This document shows, piece by piece, positions 14,301-63,671 of a stretch of DNA of 64,000 nt (within the stretch, counting starts at the first letter, position 1; every line of letters starts with the position of its first letter). Under the pieces are notes generated by a model, which was given only the letters and a program-made list of their open reading frames with translations, did not search any database and was not told the DNA's origin. Position numbers and translations under genes: made by a program. The DNA lies in the IMG/VR virus record IMGVR_UViG_2767802041_000001, positions 1 through 64,000 of that record; one strand, written 5' to 3'. Origin of the DNA: a virus. Its lineage: Duplodnaviria; Caudoviricetes.

Positions 14301-15047
14301 ATGGCGAAGACGCCTGGATCCGCGGAGATCGCCGCGCACTACCGGCGGCAGATTCAAGACGGGACACTCAGGCCCGGCGACGAGATGCCGAGCTACCGGG
14401 AAGCCACCGAGCAGTTCGGCGTAGCCCATACGACCGTCAACCGCGCTTTCCGGGCCCTCAAGATGGAGGGCCTGGTGCTCACCAGGCCGGGCAGTAAGAC
14501 CATCGTCGCTACGCCGGCCAGCACCAGCATCGGTAGCCGCGTGTCCATGCATGCCGCTACAGGTAGCGCCCTAGAGGTAGGCGAGTCCTCGCGCATCCTT
14601 GAGGTCGGAACTGTCGGTGCGAACGCCCTCGTGGCCCCTCGACTGGAGGTGGACCCGGGTACGCCTGTGCAGGTGCGCCGCCGGGTCGTGAGCAGGGGCG
14701 GCACTCCTGTTCACCTGAGCACCAGTTACTACCCCGCGTATGTGATCGCGGTGACTCCCGAGCTGAAGGAACCGGTCTCGACCGGCGCCTCGCGGGAGCT
14801 GGCCGCTTCACGGCTCGGCGTTGCTCAGGACCAGGTTCTGGAAGAGGTCACCAGCCGGCTTGCAACGGAGCCGGAGAAGCAGGCGCTGGGGTTGACTGCC
14901 GACGCGGTGGTCGTCACCCAGGTCGTACGCACGGTGACGCTGGAGGACGGCCGTGTCGTCGAGGTGGCTGTGAAGGTTGCAGAGGGGTCGACGATCCTTC
15001 GCTGGACCACGCAGCTACGCCCGCAGGAAGGGGCTGATAACGCCTGA
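14301..15047 (+). CDS. GntR/HutC-family regulator (KorA/TraR-like)
   Basis: GntR wHTH (LRPGDEMPSYREATEQFGVAHTTVNRAFRALKMEGLV) plus UTRA-like domain; divergent from the tra/spd operon. Confidence 0.9.
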   Translation: MAKTPGSAEIAAHYRRQIQDGTLRPGDEMPSYREATEQFGVAHTTVNRAFRALKMEGLVLTRPGSKTIVATPASTSIGSRVSMHAATGSALEVGESSRILEVGTVGANALVAPRLEVDPGTPVQVRRRVVSRGGTPVHLSTSYYPAYVIAVTPELKEPVSTGASRELAASRLGVAQDQVLEEVTSRLATEPEKQALGLTADAVVVTQVVRTVTLEDGRVVEVAVKVAEGSTILRWTTQLRPQEGADNA

Positions 15048-27689: not shown

Positions 27690-28460
27690 CTACGGTGCGA
27701 CACGTCCGTTGGTGTTGAACGCGGCGTGCGTGAGCGGCATCAGCCCCGCCCAGTGCGCCTCCATCAGCTCCCCCACCATCTCAATCTCCCGCTGAGGGAA
27801 CGACGGGACCTTGGCATCGGGGTGGGTGGTGCGGAGCCCCAGGAAGTGCATCAGCGACCTGGCGTTGCACGTCGCGTACATCGACGAGTACAGGCCGACC
27901 GGGAGGACCGACCGGGCGACCTCCCGGGCCACACCCGCGGCCAGCATGGCCTCGTAGGCGGCGTACGCCTCCCGGTACGCGACCTCCATGTGCAGCCGCG
28001 TGAAGTCGTGCAGTCCAGCCGGGCCGTCCACGAACTCGTACCGCCCGGACTTTCCCTGCTGCACCAGCTTTCGGTCCTCGCCGGGCCAGTAGAACACCGG
28101 CTCCAGCTCCCGGTACCTCCCCGACTCCTCGTTGTACGACCAGCCGGCCCGGTGCCGCATGAACTCGCGGAACACGAAGATCGGGGCGCTGATGAAGAAC
28201 GTCATCGACGTGTGTTCCCAAGGTGATCCATGCCTGTCCCGCATGAGGTAGTTGATCAGCCCCCGGTCCCGGGCCGTCTGCGGGTGCTCCACCGCGGTGT
28301 GCTCCAGGTCGACCATGGCGCGGGCCGGGAAGCTCCGCTCACCCAAGGTGGACACCCGGGCCGCGAACAGCACGTCCGCGTCGGACGCGGACGCCTTCAC
28401 CAGCTCCACGGTGACGTCGTCACGGAACTTCGGCTGGGCGGGCATGGGGGTGTCGGTCAC
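27690..28460 (-). CDS. thyX: FAD-dependent thymidylate synthase
   Basis: AARVS, HGSPWEH, RHR...SYNEESGRY motifs; GTG start after GGAG. Confidence 0.93.
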   Translation of the reverse strand: MTDTPMPAQPKFRDDVTVELVKASASDADVLFAARVSTLGERSFPARAMVDLEHTAVEHPQTARDRGLINYLMRDRHGSPWEHTSMTFFISAPIFVFREFMRHRAGWSYNEESGRYRELEPVFYWPGEDRKLVQQGKSGRYEFVDGPAGLHDFTRLHMEVAYREAYAAYEAMLAAGVAREVARSVLPVGLYSSMYATCNARSLMHFLGLRTTHPDAKVPSFPQREIEMVGELMEAHWAGLMPLTHAAFNTNGRVAP

Positions 28461-45641: not shown

Positions 45642-46021
45642 GGCTGTACCTCCGGAGTGGCGAAGTAGCTCTCGTGGACCGCCCACACGGCGTCTGTGCG
45701 CATGGCCATCTCGCCGTCGCGGAGTTCATCAGCCAGTAGGCCGGCCAGCTCTCCCGGCTCCAGCAGCGGTTCGTCTTCGGCGGCAAACGCGGCGTTCAGA
45801 CGGTCGCGGATGCGGTCGAAGGTCAGCTTCTGCACGTGCCCGTCCGGTCGGATCACATTCAGGTAGCCAACAGCGCAGGCCTGCTCGAACGCGGCGAGAG
45901 CTTCCGGAAGGCTGGCCAGCTTCAACTCCGGCGTGCGGGTGCTGCGGGCGGCGCGGGCCTTGGCGAGGCGCTGGGCCCTGGCGGCCTTGGTGCTGGTGTT
46001 GCGCTTCTTCTTGCTGCTCAT
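45638..46021 (-). CDS. Hypothetical protein
   Basis: GGAG RBS; basic N-terminus. Confidence 0.65.
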   Translation of the reverse strand: MSSKKKRNTSTKAARAQRLAKARAARSTRTPELKLASLPEALAAFEQACAVGYLNVIRPDGHVQKLTFDRIRDRLNAAFAAEDEPLLEPGELAGLLADELRDGEMAMRTDAVWAVHESYFATPEVQP

Positions 46022-48819: not shown

Positions 48820-48865
48820 GACCTGCGGTGTTGTCCTATAGTTTTGCGACTTAAATAACCGGATC
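48820..48865 (-). repeat. 46-bp inverted repeat, left copy
   Basis: Exact reverse complement of 61937-61982. Confidence 0.9.
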
Positions 48866-48888
48866 CCGCAGCCTCCTTCCAGCACCGC

Positions 48889-56475: not shown

Positions 56476-57618
56476 TCACCCCGCAGGCGGCCCGTCCAGC
56501 GGCACCGCCGTCACCGACCGGCGCACCTGCTCCATCCGCACCGGCAACGGCTCCCACCCCCGCGACCCCGCCATCACCCAGTTCAACGCCGCAATGCCCT
56601 TCGTGTACGACCGGCGCAACCCATCCGGCAACAACCGCACCCCCGCCGGACCCGCCTTCGACGCCTGCAACGTCACCCACAACCCCCGCCGCGAACCCAA
56701 CAACGGCAGGTCCTCGACCACCTGCTCGCGGATCTCCAACCAGCGGCGCACCGCAACCCGCGACCCCTCCCGCAGCGCATACCACTCCACCTCCGGCGGC
56801 GGCCCCAATTCCTTGACCGCCGCCAACACCCGCTGCCTCGTCGCCTCCGATCGGGCCTCCAGGCGCCCGCCGAGCACCACCTTCACCGACTCCGGATGCA
56901 CCTCGGCCAGGGCAGCGATCTCCCCCACCCGGTTCGCCGGCCCCTTCTGCTGCCGCCGCCGCACCCCCACCGCCGACAGATCCTCCGCCAGGTCGTCCAC
57001 GTTCACCGCGGCCAGCTCACCCGACCTCGGCCCCGCATCCAGCACCACCGCCACCATCGCCAACAGCCGGGCACGCTGCTCGAACGACATGCCCACACCA
57101 TCCCGCGACAACGGGCCCCGGGCGGCCAGGTCCACCATCCCCCGGTACAGCGCCTCCAACGACCGGGCCTCGACCGTCGGCTTCAACTCGGGCTGCGGCA
57201 GCACCGGCAACACCAACCCCACCCCAGGGGCTACCACCGGGCCGAGCAGGGCCACACAGTCCAGGAACACCCGCTGCGACGCCAACGGCACAGCCCGACC
57301 CCGGTCCTCCGCCCGGTAACGCAACTCCCCAGCCGCCACCAGGTCGAACACCGCCCCCAGCACCTCCGGGGCGAACAGTCGGCCCGCCGACCGCAGCACC
57401 CGCCCGCCGGCCACCTCCGGGCGGCCCACCGCACGGTCGAACATCCCCACCACCGCCCACAACTGGTGGGCCCGCTGGTCCGAGACCTGCACCGGAACAC
57501 CGCCAGCCCCCGGGACCCGCAACCGCCCCTCCCACCGGCCGGCGTCACGCGGCGCGACCCGCTCCACCACCGCGGCGAGCTGCCGCACCGCCGGGGAACC
57601 GTACTGCCTGCTGTTCAC
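56476..57618 (-). CDS. Tyrosine-recombinase-like protein lacking the C-terminal catalytic motifs
   Basis: Box I DAGPRSGEL present; no HxxR or terminal Tyr box. Confidence 0.6.
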   Translation of the reverse strand: MNSRQYGSPAVRQLAAVVERVAPRDAGRWEGRLRVPGAGGVPVQVSDQRAHQLWAVVGMFDRAVGRPEVAGGRVLRSAGRLFAPEVLGAVFDLVAAGELRYRAEDRGRAVPLASQRVFLDCVALLGPVVAPGVGLVLPVLPQPELKPTVEARSLEALYRGMVDLAARGPLSRDGVGMSFEQRARLLAMVAVVLDAGPRSGELAAVNVDDLAEDLSAVGVRRRQQKGPANRVGEIAALAEVHPESVKVVLGGRLEARSEATRQRVLAAVKELGPPPEVEWYALREGSRVAVRRWLEIREQVVEDLPLLGSRRGLWVTLQASKAGPAGVRLLPDGLRRSYTKGIAALNWVMAGSRGWEPLPVRMEQVRRSVTAVPLDGPPAG

Positions 57619-57640: not shown

Positions 57641-58744
57641 TCAGGTGAGTCCTGCGGAGGCATTGTCCTCCCAGCCGTCGTCGCGCTGCATGTACCCGAG
57701 CATGGAACGGCTGTGCCTGGCCCACCCGCCCTGGTCTGCGATGGCGACGGCGTCCTTGCCCTTGCGGCGCCCGGTGGACGCGAGGCCGGAGCGCAGGGAG
57801 TGGCCGGTCCAGAGGATGGGGATGCCGGCCCGCTGGGAGATGCGCTTGATGGCGCGGGTTACCCCGTCCGGCCCGAGCGGGCCGCGGATGTTGCCGTGCT
57901 GGTCGATCCAGTGGAACGCCGAGTCGGACGGCGACTCGTGGGGGCTGCCTCCGTGGGCGACGAGGGCCTGCCGGTATGCGACCCAGGCTCGGACTGGGCA
58001 GATGACGGGGTCCTTCTGGTAAGGGATCTTCGCGTCGCGCACGGAGTGCTTCGTCTTGCCGGTGAGGACGGAGACGACGAGCCCCTTGGCCCGTACGGCG
58101 ACGTCACCGTTCAGCAGGCCGGCGGGCTCGGAGGCGCGGGAGGCGAAGTGGAACCCGGTGAGAACGAGGGCGAGGTCGCGCAGGCCTTCAAGGCTGTCGT
58201 CGCAGGCTGCGGAGATGGCGTAGAGGCCGTCGGGGTCGGCGGCCACCGCCTGGCCGCGGCCGCGGCGCTCCTTTCCCTTGAGGAGCAGCACCTCCAGGCC
58301 GTCCAAGGCGATGCGCGCCTCGGCGGCGTCGTCCTTGGTGACGGTATGGCCGCCCCTGCGCAGGCCGACGATCGCGGCGTCCAGGTGCAACCGGGCGCTG
58401 GCCGGCGCGTACCCCAAGACCCCGCCCGGTCCTGGCCGTTGCCGTCCTTCGCGGAGTAGCCACCCGACGTAGGCGACCAGAGTGCCGCGCGATCCCTCGG
58501 TGAGAGGGAAGCCCTGCGCGGCGCAGAACCGCTCCCAAACGCGCCAGGACTTGGTGTAGGTGTCCTCGGTGTTCGCGGGCCGGATCTCGGCGGCGACGGC
58601 ATCGGCGAAGTCCTCGGCCTGCGCGAGCCGGGCGGCCGCCTCGACGCCGTGGCGTGCCGCCCACTTCTCGACGAGCGCTGCACGCTGGGCGACGGCCGGG
58701 CTCGGTAGCGGCCCCAGGGGAAGGCCATCCAGGGCGGTGCTCAC
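57641..58744 (-). CDS. Cre/MrpA-like tyrosine recombinase (multimer resolvase)
   Basis: NT..TY...WR.W..FC; RDLAL...GF..ASRASE; GKT; GHSLRSG; GGW; MLGYM. Confidence 0.9.
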   Translation of the reverse strand: MSTALDGLPLGPLPSPAVAQRAALVEKWAARHGVEAAARLAQAEDFADAVAAEIRPANTEDTYTKSWRVWERFCAAQGFPLTEGSRGTLVAYVGWLLREGRQRPGPGGVLGYAPASARLHLDAAIVGLRRGGHTVTKDDAAEARIALDGLEVLLLKGKERRGRGQAVAADPDGLYAISAACDDSLEGLRDLALVLTGFHFASRASEPAGLLNGDVAVRAKGLVVSVLTGKTKHSVRDAKIPYQKDPVICPVRAWVAYRQALVAHGGSPHESPSDSAFHWIDQHGNIRGPLGPDGVTRAIKRISQRAGIPILWTGHSLRSGLASTGRRKGKDAVAIADQGGWARHSRSMLGYMQRDDGWEDNASAGLT

Positions 58745-59234: not shown

Positions 59235-59603
59235 TCACTGGAAGATTCGGACCACGCCTCGACGGTGCGCTTCCATCGCATCCACGGTCATCTCGTGGAC
59301 GGCGACGTTGATCCCGCCCGGCAGAGCAGCCGTTCCCGGGGAGACGGTCACATTGGGCATGTAAACGTTGACGCGCGACAGGCTCTCGACCAGTCCACCG
59401 AGCGGACCCGCCTTCAACCGGAGGAGTCGCTCGGCGCACTCGCGGCAGGACGGCATCCTGTTTTGCTTGCGGGTGCAGACGTACTGGCCGCCGCTTCGAG
59501 GGTGGGCGTGGTCACGGTGGCCGCAGCGCGGGCAATCACTGCCGTGCCGACGGGTCACCTGGCGCAGGGCGCGGTCAGCGTTCGGGTAGGGGCGGTGACT
59601 CAT
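59235..59603 (-). CDS. Hypothetical Cys-rich protein
   Basis: AGGAGG RBS; CPRCGH...H, C...C.EC. Confidence 0.6.
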   Translation of the reverse strand: MSHRPYPNADRALRQVTRRHGSDCPRCGHRDHAHPRSGGQYVCTRKQNRMPSCRECAERLLRLKAGPLGGLVESLSRVNVYMPNVTVSPGTAALPGGINVAVHEMTVDAMEAHRRGVVRIFQ

Positions 59604-59862
59604 CGCGACCTCCTGGTGGGCGTACTGCCGATCGTAGCGACGAACCGGCGCAGGCTTCCCCCCGCTCGGTCACGGGTGCAGCAGCCGGGACAGTGGCGTC
59701 GGCCGGGCCCCGGGTTCGTGCGGGCGTTCCGGCGGGTCGGGTGGTTCGCCGGGGTGCGCGGTGTCGTCGGGGCCGGCCGCCTCGACCTCGCGCCGGTTCG
59801 GGTCGGTGCTCATGGTTCAAGGGTGCGCTTGGTGAGGCAAGTTGCTGCCCCTGGGTAGACAG

Positions 59863-59905
59863 TTCAACGCGTCCGTTGACTTTTCAATGGGTGCGTTGAA
59901 TAATG
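59863..59905 (+). promoter_or_regulatory. Promoter inside a 38-bp imperfect palindrome
   Basis: TTGACT-17-AATAAT, ATG 6 nt after the -10 (leaderless-like); arms TTCAACGC...GCGTTGAA. Confidence 0.6.
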
Positions 59906-59910
59906 GGGTC

Positions 59911-60714
59911 ATGGAAGCCACCCGTGACACCATCGCCGCCACGCACCGTCGCATCGCCCGCGTCACCAACGCCCTGCTCGCGGAGCTCCCGCCGGAAGCC
60001 GTCAGCGGCACCATCGCCTTCGGCAAGCCCGCCGGTACCCGAGTGATGCTCAACGAGGACCTGACTGCCGCAGACATCCTCAACAAGTCCCGAATGCACG
60101 ACGAAGGCGGCTTCGCGGACCCCCACTGGGTACTCCAGGGCGTCCACCCCGAGCTGTGGAACGGCCGCAAGCCCACCCGTGACACTCAGGTCCGAACGAC
60201 CGAGACCGATCAGACCATCCCCGCCCCTGCCCGCCAAGCTCTGTCTGCCGCAACCTCCTTCGGGGCGGCCTTGCTCAACTGGAGAAAGGCGTCTCCCGGA
60301 AGCCACCACCCTGATGAGGTTCGCGAGCGAGCCGCAGGCCGCGTTGCGCTGCACCTTGCCGACGCCAACGCAATCCTGGACATCCTGGAGCCCGAGTTGG
60401 GTCTGACGGAGCCTGCCGAGCAGGGCCCCGACCAGCTCCCCTCCGTAGCAGCCCTGGCCGCCCTGCCGCCGATCACTCGGGCTATCGCCGCCATCCGCGC
60501 CCGTGACACGGCAGACCGCAGCAGGACGGTTTACGCGGACGTACTGGGGGAGGCCCTGGCGGAGCTCAAGCAGACCCACGGACGTGGCTGGACGACCCAC
60601 GCGGCCAACGCTTTGGGTATGAAACCGTCGTCCGCCGATGAGGCGCTGCGCCGTTACCAGCGACGCTTGAACACGGCCCATACCCCGAACCAGAACCCCA
60701 CCACCGAGCAGTGA
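59911..60714 (+). CDS. Lead gene of the array; C-terminal HTH-like region; ends TTEQ
   Basis: THAANALGMKPSSADEALRRY; stop lies inside repeat 1. Confidence 0.7.
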   Translation: MEATRDTIAATHRRIARVTNALLAELPPEAVSGTIAFGKPAGTRVMLNEDLTAADILNKSRMHDEGGFADPHWVLQGVHPELWNGRKPTRDTQVRTTETDQTIPAPARQALSAATSFGAALLNWRKASPGSHHPDEVRERAAGRVALHLADANAILDILEPELGLTEPAEQGPDQLPSVAALAALPPITRAIAAIRARDTADRSRTVYADVLGEALAELKQTHGRGWTTHAANALGMKPSSADEALRRYQRRLNTAHTPNQNPTTEQ

Positions 60715-60725
60715 GGACCACGACC

Positions 60726-60923
60726 ATGAACGACCGGCTCGAATCCCGGCCGGGAGGCCACCCGCACCTGGACACGATCCTGGCCCACGGCGAGAGCCCC
60801 CGCCACCTCCTGATGGACCACCTGTGCCGCCCGGCCCGCCTCGACCGGGCACTCACCGAGACCTACGCGCGGCAGCTCATCAACGCCGTGATCACCGAAG
60901 CGAACCCCCAGACCGGGCAGTGA
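60726..60923 (+). CDS. Array ORF 1 (65 aa, ends QTGQ)
   Basis: Start and stop both lie inside repeats. Confidence 0.7.
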   Translation: MNDRLESRPGGHPHLDTILAHGESPRHLLMDHLCRPARLDRALTETYARQLINAVITEANPQTGQ

Positions 60924-60934
60924 GGACCACGATC

Positions 60935-61195
60935 ATGGCGAAGGTAACCGCCCGCGACGCCCTGTCCTACTCGCTCAAGCGAGATCAAGCCCAGTTCGCC
61001 GAAGAGGCCGAGCGGCTGGCCAAGCAGGCCGCGCACATCGCCGCGAACCCGCCCACTGACGGCCGATCCGTTTCCGGCGACATCACCCGCCTCATGCAGG
61101 AGGCCGCCTTCCTCCTCAAGCGGGCCGTCACCATCGAAGCCGGGCTCGAAGCCGTCGGGCTGATGGGTGTCGAGACCGCCACCACCGCACAGTGA
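60935..61195 (+). CDS. Array ORF 2 (86 aa, helical, ends TTAQ)
   Basis: Start and stop both lie inside repeats. Confidence 0.7.
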   Translation: MAKVTARDALSYSLKRDQAQFAEEAERLAKQAAHIAANPPTDGRSVSGDITRLMQEAAFLLKRAVTIEAGLEAVGLMGVETATTAQ

Positions 61196-61206
61196 GGACC
61201 ACGACC

Positions 61207-61368
61207 ATGGAGTACGAGCCGAGCGCGGACGAAGAGGTCTGCGGCGACACCTACGACCACGACGTCGTCATCGACCACGAGAGCAAGGACGGCATCCAGT
61301 GGCACTGCGCCCGACCCGGGTGCGGAGTTGAAGTCTGGGACCCGGCGCCCATCACCACCGAGCAGTGA
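61207..61368 (+). CDS. Array ORF 3 (53 aa, acidic with Cys/His, ends TTEQ)
   Basis: Hand translation MEYEPSADEEVCGDTYDHD...PITTEQ; below the ORF-track cutoff. Confidence 0.7.
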   Translation: MEYEPSADEEVCGDTYDHDVVIDHESKDGIQWHCARPGCGVEVWDPAPITTEQ

Positions 61369-61379
61369 GGACCGCGACC

Positions 61380-61538
61380 ATGGCAACCTACATCCTTTGC
61401 ATTGAGACCGACGGCGATGTCAATCCGGCCCAGCTCCGAGCCGACCTAGAGAACGCGGCCGAGGTAGGAGACCTCTCGGTCGGCCTGAAGGTCACCGCCG
61501 TAGCGGCAGTCGAGCCTTCGGCCACCACCGAGCAGTGA
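61380..61538 (+). CDS. Array ORF 4 (52 aa, ends TTEQ)
   Basis: Hand translation MATYILCIETDGDV...PSATTEQ. Confidence 0.7.
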   Translation: MATYILCIETDGDVNPAQLRADLENAAEVGDLSVGLKVTAVAAVEPSATTEQ

Positions 61539-61549
61539 GGAGTACGACT

Positions 61550-61723
61550 ATGACCCGCGAGGAGTACGAGGAGCAGTACCGCCGCCTAGAAGCCGACGCG
61601 GCGGACGCCAAGAAGACCCTGAACCGCGCTCGCGCCACGTACGACGGCATCTGCGAGGAACTGCGGAACCTGCGCATCGACTGGACCGAGCAGCAGCGCC
61701 GTCAGACCACTACCGAGCAGTGA
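61550..61723 (+). CDS. Array ORF 5 (57 aa, coiled coil, ends TTEQ)
   Basis: MTREEYEEQYRRLEAD...QTTTEQ. Confidence 0.7.
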   Translation: MTREEYEEQYRRLEADAADAKKTLNRARATYDGICEELRNLRIDWTEQQRRQTTTEQ

Positions 61724-61800
61724 GGACCACGGCGGCGGAACACGACTACGTGCCGGAGGGCACGCCACAGTGCCGCAGGTGTGCAGCCACCGAGCAGTAG
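61720..61800 (+). pseudogene. Truncated terminal array unit (ends ATEQ)
   Basis: Repeat 6 lacks its ATG; a short open frame ...CRRCAATEQ ends in a half repeat. Confidence 0.5.
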
Positions 61801-61936
61801 CCCGCCAGCGCGACGCCCCGACCATTAGAGGTGGCCGCGGGCGGCGCCGTGTCAGCCTACGTGCTGCTGCTTGTCCGTCGAGACGACCCGAGGACGACAG
61901 TCCAGAGGGGGCCGGCAAGGATGGAGAGACGTGCAA

Positions 61937-61982
61937 GATCCGGTTATTTAAGTCGCAAAACTATAGGACAACACCGCAGGTC
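61937..61982 (+). repeat. 46-bp inverted repeat, right copy
   Basis: GATCCGGTTATTTAAGTCGCAAAACTATAGGACAACACCGCAGGTC. Confidence 0.9.
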
Positions 61983-62004
61983 AAAAGCCTGGACGCCAGA
62001 CTTG

Positions 62005-63291
62005 TCATGCCACCCTCGTCAACCTGAGCCACGACCCGGCACGCAACACCGTTGCCGTAGCCATCGCCGCGTTCTGCGCCCACTGCACAGTGATCGCCCC
62101 GGACGCACCCGCAGTGATCGTGCCAAGCGGAGTAACGATCAGCCCGGCAGCAGTGATGCCGACCCCAATAGCCACACCAGGGTCGTACCGAGTCAGCCGC
62201 AACGACCCCGTGCCGTCCGAAACGCCCAGCGTGATCCCGGCCGGAGCCCAATGCCCAGTAGAGCCGGGCGGCGCAGACAGAGTCAGCAGCAGGTCGCCCG
62301 CCGGGTCCCCCGAGACAACCAGGCACGCGTCTATGGCGTACCGGCCGCCAGCGGTAACGGGGAGGGTGAGGTGGTCGTCGTCCTGGAGGACGGTAGACGA
62401 GGTGACGGACTCGTCAGCGGCCTTGTCGACCGTGCGGATGACGCCGACGACGTCACCTGTCGGCGGGACGCCAGCAGGGCCCTGCGGTCCTTGCGGCCCG
62501 GTAGCTCCCGTATCGCCCTTCGGGCCGGCGGGTCCCGTTGCACCAGTGGCTCCAGTGTCGCCCTTGGGGCCGGCGGGTCCCGTTGCACCAGTGGCTCCAG
62601 TGTCGCCCTTGGGGCCGGCCGGGCCGACCGCTCCCGTGGCCCCGGCCGCACCGGTAGCGCCGGTGTCGCCCTTCGGCCCGGCGGGGCCTTGAGGGCCTGT
62701 GTCTCCCGTGTCGCCCTTGGCTCCATCCGGGCCGGTTGCACCGGTTGCTCCGGTGGGTCCGGGGTCTCCCTGCGGGCCTGGCACCCCCTGCGGGCCCTCC
62801 GGCCCGGTCGCCCCGTCGGCTCCCGGCGCCCCATCGGCTCCGGCAGCGCCCGGGTGGCCTTGTGGGCCAGGGTCGCCTGCCGGGCCTGTCGCGCCGGGCG
62901 GTCCTGCTGGGCCCTCGGGGCCCGGCACGTACACGATGGTGCTACCCCCGGTCGGGGCCTCCCCCAGATCGACCCGCAGATCCCCCACCCAGTGCGGGCC
63001 GCCGGTCTCCGGCACCAGGATGTACGTCATCACCGGCATGCCGTCGTACGAGCGGCCCTCCATCACCGCCCACACCGTGTCCCCGGCGTCCGCCTGGACC
63101 TGCGCGTTCGGGATCAGGTCCGCGGACCAGGTGCCGTCCTCCTGCGGCTTCACCAGGACGGGGCGGACGACCTCGGCCTCTTCCCCGCCGGCGTACCCGA
63201 TCGCCCGGGCGCCGGTGACGTCGACCAGCTCGATCTCGATCCGGGTCTGCGACGGCACCCCGCCGAACAGCTTGCCCGTGACGGTGGCCAT
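62005..63291 (-). CDS. Collagen-like (Gly-X-Y) phage structural / tail-fibre-like protein
   Basis: Long Gly-X-Y run including a 45-bp tandem unit ([15 protein letters not shown]); beta-rich C-terminal domain; TGATG overlap at the start. Confidence 0.8.
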
Positions 63292-63671
63292 CAGATGCTC
63301 CAGGTGATGAGGTCGGTGGGCACCGAAACGGGCTCCTGGCCACACGTGCACGCACGTAGCCGCTGATTCGCCGAGCGCACCACCATCAGTGCGGACCGGA
63401 GTTTCTCCTCCCGGTCGTCCCGCTCGGACCGGAGCTTGTCGACGTCGTGCTTGAGCTGCCCGATCTCCTCGCGTAGCCCGTTGATCTGCGCCTGCAAGGC
63501 GTCCCGTATCTCCTTGAACGCCTCACGGTCCTGCTGCCGCTCACTCGCCGCGTTCTGCGGCGCCGCCTGTTCACGGGCCGCGATCCGCGAGTTCCGCGAC
63601 GCGTACAGGGTTCCCGCGAGGCTGATGAGGGCGATTGCTGCCGTGCCAACGGCGGTCCACGCGTTACCCAT
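63291..63671 (-). CDS. Membrane-anchored coiled-coil protein (lysis-region type)
   Basis: N-terminal TM helix then coiled coil. Confidence 0.65.

Follow-up and report, generated by a model that had tools for sequence, protein, structure and literature searches.

How can a row of very small, mutually unrelated genes stay readable when their order differs from one relative to the next? The question is raised by positions 59876-61800 of the window, by which we mean the whole stretch of 64,000 nucleotides (nt) analysed here (positions 1 to 64,000 of the IMG/VR virus record IMGVR_UViG_2767802041_000001). This region is a hypervariable operon of ORFan mini-genes behind a single promoter, in which successive genes are joined by a recurrent junction of about 29 nt, and the element that carries it is a pZL12-like linear plasmid-prophage of Streptomyces. 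We lean towards the reading that the junction is a portable adaptor, with homologous adaptor-to-adaptor recombination between co-resident elements shuffling the gene cassettes and selection for translation helping to keep its sequence.

An unbiased repeat search returned a single repeat family with six copies, at 60692, 60901, 61173, 61346, 61516 and 61701 (spacings 209, 272, 173, 170 and 185). With up to three mismatches allowed, the 29-mer of the junction is matched at 60700 (0 mismatches), 61181 (2), 61354 (1) and 61524 (3), four matches compared with 0.00 expected from 100 dinucleotide shuffles, and the repeat search adds a more diverged copy at 60909 and a decayed copy without ATG at 61709. 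Throughout the 85,081-bp record the junction gives five forward, no reverse and no control matches, and it is found in the array only. Every full interval holds exactly one plus-strand open reading frame (ORF), of 65, 86, 53, 52 and 57 amino acids (aa) respectively, and these five small ORFs are preceded by a 267-aa gene (59911-60714); the RefSeq annotation of the identical plasmid NZ_CP070261.1 calls the same six ORFs. An earlier note on this DNA had reported the repeat, its spacings and the layout of one ORF per interval, all of which are confirmed by pattern match, repeat search and ORF map. Its statement that the ORFs are unrelated to one another also holds, as no pair among the six has a BLASTP match at E ≤ 0.01, and the Pfam, PHROGs and NCBIfam libraries yield nothing above cut-off for any of them.

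At the boundaries of the array genes the junction reads (ACC)ACCGAGCAG-TGA-GGACCACGACC-ATG, that is, (ACC)ACC GAG CAG, then TGA, then GGACCACGACC, then ATG. The last three to four codons of the upstream gene, encoding the protein tail T-T-E-Q, thus belong to the junction, the TGA stop is overlapped by a GAGG(A) Shine-Dalgarno core whose GAGG lies 9 nt 5' of the ATG, and an A/C-rich spacer sets an intergenic gap of 11 nt, which is the length of all gaps in the window array. In the sequence of each full junction, stop, ribosome-binding site (GAGGA) and start are indeed supplied by the repeat, as had been proposed. Termination-reinitiation is a well-known process, as is the benefit of A/C-rich, unstructured leaders, and we infer a translational role for the junction from its sequence. 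The array closes with a half junction, GCCACCGAGCAG-TAG (...ACCGAGCAG-TAG), at 61786-61800. Alignment with an intact 50-aa cassette in a related locus from IMG/VR (L043) identifies the array end as a 5'-deleted cassette remnant, in which about 80 nt are missing in the window, from within junction 6 into the 50-aa ORF, so that the distal unit is decayed as the earlier note had it.

A blastn search of the array against plasmids and phages recovered ten further Streptomyces plasmids and the plasmid-phage ZL12, and in the annotated relatives the small plus-strand genes are likewise spaced by 11 nt with the junction present. The GTDB genomes and IMG/VR were scanned with a degenerate 20-mer as an exact pattern. 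The GTDB scan gave 25 stretches, of which 13 are from named Streptomyces and have 0-2 mismatches in the six unspecified upstream bases; the other 12, from unrelated metagenome-assembled genomes and genera, look like chance matches given their upstream bases (2-6 mismatches in ten, no match within 6 in two) and were rejected. Nine IMG/VR contigs of 68-92 kb carry the junction. A copy with at most three mismatches is present in 9/401 sampled Streptomyces species genomes, one of the nine being the centre genome, and the reversed-pattern control is found in 0/401; in five whole genomes the junction is confined to one or two contigs each and occurs nowhere else in 7-10 Mb. After exclusion of the 12 non-Streptomyces stretches and of duplicates of the window, 85 junctions with intact stop and start remained in 45 loci (42 contig names), a count in which some elements may figure in two collections, L045 is the contig of L068, and L019, L032 and L039 lie at separate positions of a single contig. 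With two or three exceptions, the 45 loci belong to plasmids, plasmid-phages or contigs named as Streptomyces. Downstream of junctions stand 84 ORFs, which make up 20 multi-member families and 33 singletons (53 in all), and among 26 array proteins submitted to Pfam (6 from the window and 20 from relatives) only a DUF6354 match passes the cut-off; by these family searches the cassette genes are ORFans. The K2 cassette has 54 database homologues (54-100% identity), and all the named ones come from Streptomyces.

Comparison of ORF content and order between repeats in these Streptomyces elements, which the earlier note had suggested, shows a pattern of whole-cassette shuffling at junctions. The window carries K2-K4-K14-K9 and L030 carries K9-K4, so that K4 follows K9 in L030 and precedes it in the window. 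Likewise, the order is K2-K1-K3-K4 in L003 and K1-K2 in L004; K3 stands before K4 in L003, and a K4-like cassette (F4) stands before K3 in L050, which also contains ..K6-x-K3. Since these orders conflict, deletion alone is insufficient to explain them. Moreover, the best relatives of the window cassettes lie in different elements (F17 in L043, 94.5% nt identity; K2 in L006, 88%; K4 in L030, 92%; K14 in L011, 74%; K9 in L026 and L045, 85%). The permuted orders contradict a series of identical ORFs in identical order with diverged junctions, and the absence of any similar ORF pair contradicts paralogues made by tandem duplication, the two patterns that had been named as speaking against shuffling. 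The general proposal of a recombination-shuffled array of expression-ready mini-genes is therefore upheld, the junction being constant and the ORF content and order variable.

The breakpoints agree in position with the junctions. In blastn comparisons many pZL12-like relatives keep the flanks 59700-59855 and 61787-61990 at 72-91% identity around an interior that has been replaced: the left flank in L002 (ZL12), L005, L007, L009, L010, L011, L030, L046 and L050 (72-91%), and the right flank in L005, L007-L010, L046 and L050 (73-88%), with a short match of 61789-61862 to L002. The high-scoring segment pairs of the cassettes stop at junctions. For instance, L007 and L008 are 95% identical until 1 nt beyond a junction ATG, where one unrelated cassette follows in each (250 nt vs 448 nt), and identity resumes at the ...GAG-CAG/GAC-GAG-TAG end and returns to 85-97%. 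The only block common to L010 (an 88-kb plasmid-phage) and L012 (a 437-kb plasmid) is 156 nt long and consists of the junction and one cassette, and L009 and L047 have a sole common block of 349 nt. In L043 a junction separates F17 from the 50-aa cassette; at that point the window carries an insertion of four cassettes. Because the same adaptor stands between different genes in different orders, it looks like a plug-and-play junction for small genes.

Some single loci add to this picture of the cassette pool. At 3024-3301 of L005 a decayed K2-type cassette is flanked by two intact junctions; its frame stays open for 12 codons after the ATG, and tblastn still aligns at least 70 K2 residues, which shows that cassettes can erode in place while junctions persist. 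In S. anulatus, near-identical cassettes (97-98% aa identity) are common to a plasmid-phage of about 90 kb and a large plasmid. Junction-linked gene pairs are not confined to one array per element: the 94.6-kb contig G003:C28 has junctions at 45962(-), 52880(+) and 86494/86826(+).

The extent of the conserved segment was assessed from 66 distinct 80-nt contexts, in which information rises about 3 nt before ACCGAG and drops right after ATG; as copies were selected by core similarity, values within the core are inflated, and the sharp edges are unaffected. Among 32 annotated consecutive same-strand boundaries (the window and 11 loci), 22 carry this junction (at most 5/26 mismatches), three a second type, and seven are other, two or three of which look like indel variants. 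Where protein similarity was the sole criterion for finding cassette homologues, 5/6 evaluable loci had the junction or a near variant downstream, one further locus being cut by a contig end; with the 53-aa cassette as query, the search for related loci yielded a match of 12 residues only, which was set aside. Of the K2 homologues (n = 54), 21 end in TEQ and 10 in TEK. Ten K2 genes have a third-codon-position identity of 61.6%, and in the seven with the junction (type A) downstream the junction 26-mers are 88.6% identical, a value conditioned on junction presence. Slower evolution of the junction is not shown by the unconditioned comparison (45 pairs of the 10 genes, terminal and type-B boundaries included), in which the 26-mer reaches 0.719 vs 0.737 for codon positions 1+2 and 0.616 for position 3.

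The second type, which we call type B, reads (A)AGGAGARC-TGA-CC-ATG, with a spacer of 2 nt and an upstream protein that ends in K/E-E-N/S. It has 16 matches in 11 loci, compared with 0 for the reversed control, and none in the window (positions in Table 1). K2 genes are preceded by type A in 5/10 loci and by type B in 5/10, so the two adaptors are interchangeable; in L030 and L059 type B also immediately precedes K1 starts of the MSGIY type. The existence of two unrelated sequences that combine Shine-Dalgarno site, stop and start suggests that a translation-coupling adaptor is conserved, rather than the recognition site of one enzyme. Within type A there is, in addition, a 'dialect', GAGAAG-TGA-GGACACCGACC (full form ACCGAGAAG-TGA-GGACACCGACC-ATG). 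It is found at 5/5 boundaries of L070 (2669-4451, on a 25-kb IMG/VR contig) and at two to three of three in L060, it recurs in other genomes (G091, G166), and it is occasionally mixed with the canonical form within one array (L049, L051).

The claim of a single upstream promoter is corroborated by a consensus scan, in which the only promoter-like site in 59600-62100 lies at 59876-59904 (0.1 expected) and none lies inside the array or at the junctions. The ATG of the 267-aa gene at 59911 begins 6 nt past the -10 hexamer, which suggests that this first gene is leaderless. A -10-like hexamer 6-7 nt 5' of the ATG and the lack of a Shine-Dalgarno sequence were also observed for the first genes in L002, L003, L006, L007, L008 and L009, and from both traits the arrays seem to open with a leaderless gene, the adaptor serving the genes downstream. 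The first gene itself differs between elements: here it encodes the 267-aa protein, for which an Atlas search gave helix-turn-helix leads at chance level only (0.79-0.82), and in many others it encodes a CxCGC...GHDK protein of about 101-164 aa (family F2, no Pfam family). Three imperfect palindromes of about 17 bp (TTCAA..TTGA; TTCAAnGnGTnCGnTTGA), operator-like by eye, are located in 59815-59900, where they overlap the -35 box and spacer within a 97-bp region common to the divergent 47-aa ORF; their position over the promoter suggests that the operon may be under repressor control.

Neither the repeat search nor folding detected a hairpin, inverted repeat or dyad at the junctions on either strand, in agreement with the earlier statement that attC-like hairpins are absent. 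The 80-nt junction windows have folding-energy percentiles from the 57th to the 94th on the plus strand and from the 20th to the 98th on the minus strand, and are thus not unusually structured; compared with background, windows centred on a junction show less folding, and the junction itself is more accessible than average (P(unpaired) 0.46-0.63 vs a mean of 0.44). Rfam gave no match in 59500-62100 at E ≤ 1, and no antisense partner of the junction of 13 nt or longer occurs in the window and 44 kb of the plasmid outside the array, where only chance-level 11-12-mers were seen, equally frequent on both strands. A terminator 3' of the array was not detected, either as a significant fold (z = +0.74 for 61798-61870) or by the consensus scan.

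We can now state the favoured mechanism more fully. An ORF that lands behind the adaptor would acquire stop, ribosome site and start together, and translational coupling or re-initiation would let the downstream ORFs be made from transcripts of the single upstream promoter. The same adaptor recurs in a large number of co-circulating elements and roughly matches the minimal efficient pairing segment (MEPS) in length; adaptors could therefore serve as partners for the homologous recombination systems of host or phage, in equal or unequal exchanges and both inside one element and between two. Such crossovers would insert, delete, replace or permute whole ORFs with reading frames unbroken, and a crossover anywhere inside the adaptor would leave both neighbouring ORFs intact. 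Its length of 26-32 nt is within the range of the pairing minima of RecA (31-34 bp) and Red-beta (23-27 bp), as given in the available part of PMC3945230. From the sequence comparisons we infer that homology, and not a dedicated enzyme, drives the recombination; for the ORFs themselves, roles as early or accessory phage functions would be a guess.

Several observations weigh against this mechanism. The array is unchanged, without rearrangement joints, in the assembled contigs of three runs, a form of data in which rare circles would not appear. Since the junction itself was partly the means by which its copies were found, the conservation figures are biased. Junction identity is 0.879 within and 0.880 between loci (a difference reached in 576/1000 shuffles), which gives no indication of local gene conversion; concerted evolution within arrays was rejected on the same ground, and as judged from these identities the junction copies behave as one mixed population. 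Moreover, about 26 nt are kept near 88% identity where a Shine-Dalgarno site needs about 5 nt. Homology alone fails to explain this, and one has to suppose either a reader of the specific sequence or exchange at very high frequency. Finally, the Rad52-like annealing gene that the earlier note placed on the element was not recovered: Rad52_Rad22, RecT and ERF (Pfam, E ≤ 1) have no match in the record, and PHROGs scans of seven genes near the SSB gene gave an endonuclease and a RuvC-like resolvase and no annealing protein.

The carrier and its neighbouring genes were examined as well (Table 1). Over the compared stretches the window is 100% identical to NZ_CP070261.1, an 85-kb linear plasmid of Streptomyces californicus with genes for ParA/ParB, terminase, capsid, tail, lysis and DNA metabolism, and it also matches ZL12/pZL12. 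According to the accessible part of PMC4487206, pZL12 is a well-characterised plasmid, and the title of the pZL12 paper in its reference list names a plasmid/lytic phage cycle. The array has a recombinase module on one side and the genes for the collagen-like tail fibre and lysis on the other. Directly 3' of the array and on the opposite strand, 62005-63351 (-) encodes a collagen-like (G-X-Y) protein, probably a tail fibre, with 9- and 45-nt periodic DNA repeats at 62453-62809. The recombinase module consists of 57641-58744 (-, Phage_integrase) and 56476-57618, which has no known family. A tyrosine recombinase near the array, as noted before, is thus confirmed, on the minus strand about 1.2 kb from the array start. 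Its Phage_integrase match is weak and generic (28.4 bits vs a cut-off of 27.1), and at E ≤ 0.01 NCBIfam gives only XerA (18 bits vs 220) and XerC (16 bits vs 335); the XerA model is named 'tyrosine recombinase/integron integrase', and the match is far under its cut-off. The NCBIfam scan shows no IntI signature in the recombinase, the presence of an IntI-specific model in the library not being confirmed. An integrase is annotated 1-3 kb upstream of the array in at least 6/11 annotated relatives (L002, L004, L007, L008, L010, L011), and none is present in the 3-4 kb flanks of L003, L005, L006 and L012 (at least 4/11); the flank of L009 ends before the integrase position could show. These four loci are mini-arrays on plasmids of 316-456 kb, and in the same flanks the annotation lists metabolic, transposase or unnamed genes but none of phage type; L026 is a mini-array on a chromosome-sized scaffold of 6.9 Mb.

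A pair of 51-nt AT-rich inverted repeats, at 48820-48870 and 61932-61982 and 96% complementary, brackets a 13.1-kb segment that contains both recombinase-like genes and the cassette array, its right arm lying between the array and the stop of the collagen-like gene. A pattern of the repeat core with at most three mismatches had no match in five relatives, and BLAST then gave the ZL12 copies, at 14502-14550 (-) and about 28129-28167 (+), roughly 13.6 kb apart. It may be that the segment inverts or is excised as a module and that here lies the true target of the tyrosine recombinases. Its orientation is the same in the two available assemblies, and branching of the contig graph at 61937-61982 was rejected as a sign of inversion, as the second inverted copy at 48820-48870 explains it.

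Table 1. Coordinates of the array, its flanks and the nearby recombinase in the window, and of type B junctions in related loci.
Feature	Position	Strand	Remarks
Tyrosine recombinase, divergent	57641..58744	-	Pfam Phage_integrase E=1.7e-6; PHROG integrase
Left flank	59670..59855	-	Divergent 47-aa ORF 59670-59813 and start of shared intergenic control region
Promoter, sigma-70-like	59876..59904	+	TTGACT-17-AATAAT, consensus scan
First gene, 267 aa, ends ...NPTTEQ	59911..60714	+	No Pfam, PHROG or NCBIfam family
Junction 1, consensus copy	60700..60728	+	ACCACCGAGCAG-TGA-GGACCACGACC-ATG, 0 mismatches
Cassette, 65 aa, family F17	60726..60923	+	94.5% nt identity to cassette in IMG/VR locus L043
Junction 2	60909..60937	+	5 mismatches to 29-mer (manual count); 2/26 in core
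Cassette, 86 aa, family K2/F1, MAKVTARD...	60935..61195	+	86-88% nt identity to L003, L006, L044
Junction 3	61181..61209	+	2 mismatches
Cassette, 53 aa, family K4	61207..61368	+	Four Cys, zinc-ribbon-like by eye; 92% nt identity to L030
Junction 4	61354..61382	+	1 mismatch
Cassette, 52 aa, family K14	61380..61538	+	74% nt identity to L011
Junction 5	61524..61552	+	3 mismatches
Cassette, 57 aa, family K9/F6, coiled-coil-like	61550..61723	+	85% nt identity to L026 and L045, 81% to L030
Junction 6, truncated	61709..61731	+	ATG and ~80 nt of next cassette deleted
3' remnant of 50-aa cassette	61735..61800	+	61735-61859 aligns to L043 at 84%
Right flank	61787..61990	+	Begins at half junction; conserved in relatives
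Type B junctions	L002 3436; L003 3003; L018 3349; L027 3699; L044 3155; L046 10642; L064 2477; L066 2477		
Type B junctions	L030 2086/2376/2507; L043 556/929; L059 231/413/688	-	

Other explanations of the junction have to be weighed against a portable adaptor. It may mainly be a cis-regulatory site read by a trans factor, such as an RNA-binding protein, an endoribonuclease or a small RNA, so that all cistrons are switched together, as proposed for the start-associated sequences (SAS) of mycobacteriophages, and cassette exchange is a by-product. This is compatible with the adaptor reading and differs from it only in what conserves the sequence; we regard it as possible but doubtful. The conservation of about 26 nt where a ribosome site needs about 5 speaks for it, as do the single orientation and the constant position at starts, before unrelated families, which are traits of SAS as described in the available part of PMC3203893; the concentration of the dialect in some elements (L070, L060) could reflect co-evolution with a reader. 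However, no candidate reader emerged, whether as an antisense segment of at least 13 nt (window and 44 kb) or as an Rfam family, the first array gene varies between elements, junctions also occur in mini-arrays on large plasmids with no phage genes in the 3-4 kb flanks, and the unrelated type B stands before the same cassettes. It is unlikely, in our estimate, that the junction is the recognition site of dedicated cassette-mobilisation machinery, for example a junction-specific nuclease or recombinase of pZL12-like elements. The tyrosine recombinase pair or the adjoining EndoVII/HNH genes could be its agents, and breaks or circles at junctions would then actively capture and reshuffle ORFan genes; a second junction type with the same job fits generic homology better than such a dedicated site. 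If the explanation were true, the machinery would do the work of an integron in actinobacterial plasmid-phages, with sites defined by sequence and free of hairpins, and it would seed mini-arrays on large linear plasmids and chromosomes.

Integrons are defined by attC hairpins and the integrase IntI. An integron-like mechanism, in which the divergent tyrosine recombinase about 1.2 kb upstream excises and inserts cassettes site-specifically at the junction, would account for the opposite-strand recombinase, the one promoter with its co-oriented, promoterless single-ORF cassettes, and the integrase 1-3 kb upstream in at least 6/11 annotated relatives. Nevertheless we consider it improbable, and this part of the earlier proposal is not borne out, as inverted repeats and hairpins are lacking at the junction on both strands, the best NCBIfam match of the recombinase reaches 18 bits vs a cut-off of 220 with no integron-integrase signature, at least 4/11 annotated loci have integrase-free 3-4 kb flanks, two unrelated junction types flank the same cassettes, and the element shows no Rad52, RecT or ERF domain (Pfam). 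In addition, one plasmid-phage contig has junctions at three separate places, and the recombinases have another candidate target in the 51-nt inverted-repeat pair around their 13-kb module. A left-half variant, GCACAG, moreover accompanies the downstream K4 in the window and in L003, where the upstream cassettes differ, which argues against one fixed crossover point, albeit from two cases only. Very unlikely, in turn, is the idea that T-T-E-Q is a functional C-terminal tag (for degradation, packaging or modification) with the nucleotide repeat as its consequence: unrelated proteins do all end in TEQ-like tails (21/54 TEQ and 10/54 TEK among K2 homologues), but conservation continues undiminished through the stop and 11 non-coding bases, the tails vary non-conservatively by single-base changes (Q/K, E/K/G/A, Q to stop, Q deleted), and some cassettes carry the type-B tail K-E-N. 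The stoperators of Cluster A (L5) phages are asymmetric sites that also serve as operator at the early promoter and are dispersed over the genome. A silencer of this kind, with a repressor that binds the junctions and blocks elongation in the plasmid-prophage state, has hardly any probability in our view. In its favour, the junction sites are asymmetric, point in the direction of transcription and extend over the ends of genes, and the analogy is mentioned in PMC3203893, but neither the promoter region nor any part of the 85-kb record outside the array contains the motif, and the promoter has its own, different palindromic repeats (operator-like by eye). Tandem duplication of one small gene followed by divergence, with the junctions as the sole recognisable remainder, would suit the regular, short and co-oriented units; it is effectively refuted by the lack of any similar pair of window ORFs at E ≤ 0.01 and by the closest relatives of the cassettes (74-94% nt identity), each in a different element and neighbourhood.

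The PeSLs (early promoter plus stem-loop) of T4-type phages share several features with the junction arrays, according to the accessible parts of PMC2839356 and PMC4122927. There, too, a conserved expression motif lies between small ORFans in a hypervariable region, the motif spans from the upstream stop to the downstream Shine-Dalgarno site and start, and indels and replacements have their endpoints within it, as is seen here at the junction ATG of L007 and L008. However, a PeSL consists of a sigma-70 early promoter and a stem-loop terminator, which make each ORF its own transcription unit, whereas the Streptomyces junction has neither and would link cistrons translationally within one transcript; without promoter or terminator, the junction array is not a PeSL. 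Host, element type (plasmid-prophage and plasmids) and sequence are unrelated as well, and mini-circles are demonstrated for PeSLs in the same sources, while the Streptomyces array is known here from assembled sequence. The SAS and extended SAS (ESAS) of Cluster K mycobacteriophages are similar in other respects, as far as described in the available text of PMC3203893: these motifs of an actinobacterial temperate phage are asymmetric and stand just 5' of the ATG, have a Shine-Dalgarno core but are conserved well beyond it, occur in one orientation in the non-structural region before different gene families, and sometimes include the upstream stop. Correspondingly, GAGG precedes the ATG by 9 nt here, a slightly longer spacing, and 53 ORF families follow the junction. 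In contrast, the SAS is a 13-bp sequence, GGGATAGGAGCCC, lying 3-7 bp before starts and scattered over half the genome, and gene shuffling at SAS is not reported in that available text; the Streptomyces junction does not have the consensus GGGATAGGAGCCC, differs in length (about 29 nt) and host, includes the last codons and stop of the upstream gene at fixed spacing, and forms contiguous arrays with permutation.

With integrons, the arrays have in common the single promoter (by consensus scan, all array ORFs are promoterless plus-strand genes behind one candidate site), the co-oriented cassettes, the opposite-strand tyrosine recombinase and the variable content and order, but the junction of about 29 nt is conserved in sequence and not in structure, attC palindromes and an IntI signature are missing, and for the arrays of L003, L005, L006 and L012 no integrase is annotated in the 3-4 kb flanks. 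Nor is the array a CRISPR locus, as the earlier note had said: its intervals of 170-272 nt are complete ORFs that use the stop and start of the repeat, not short non-coding spacers behind a leader, and the annotation of NZ_CP070261.1 contains no cas genes. For lambdoid phages, gene exchange at conserved gene boundaries is an older idea, under the name of linker or boundary sequences. The mosaicism of temperate phages by relaxed recombination, described in the accessible part of PMC3945230, similarly involves exchange via short conserved patches at gene boundaries; here, unlike there, one standardised patch is reused dozens of times and doubles as a translation signal, and no Rad52-like recombinase was found on the carrier element (Pfam, PHROGs). 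Our full-text searches gave no earlier description of the junction, a mention in the original pZL12 paper remaining possible.

If the adaptor reading is correct, the junction would be a natural standard part, a sequence of about 29 nt that both expresses and exchanges small genes, and it would offer a ready-made polycistronic linker for Streptomyces engineering. It also marks the site of accessory genes, possibly with functions in defence, counter-defence or host takeover, and gives a testable idea for the role of SAS-like motifs in actinophages. The principle known from PeSLs, where lytic T4-like phages of Gram-negative bacteria shuffle genes by way of a transcription signal, would be extended to temperate plasmid-prophages, to actinomycetes and to a signal for translational coupling. 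Above all, the adaptor would explain how Streptomyces plasmid-phages and large plasmids maintain a fluid pool of ORFans, of which at least 53 families were seen, that is kept expressed in any order.

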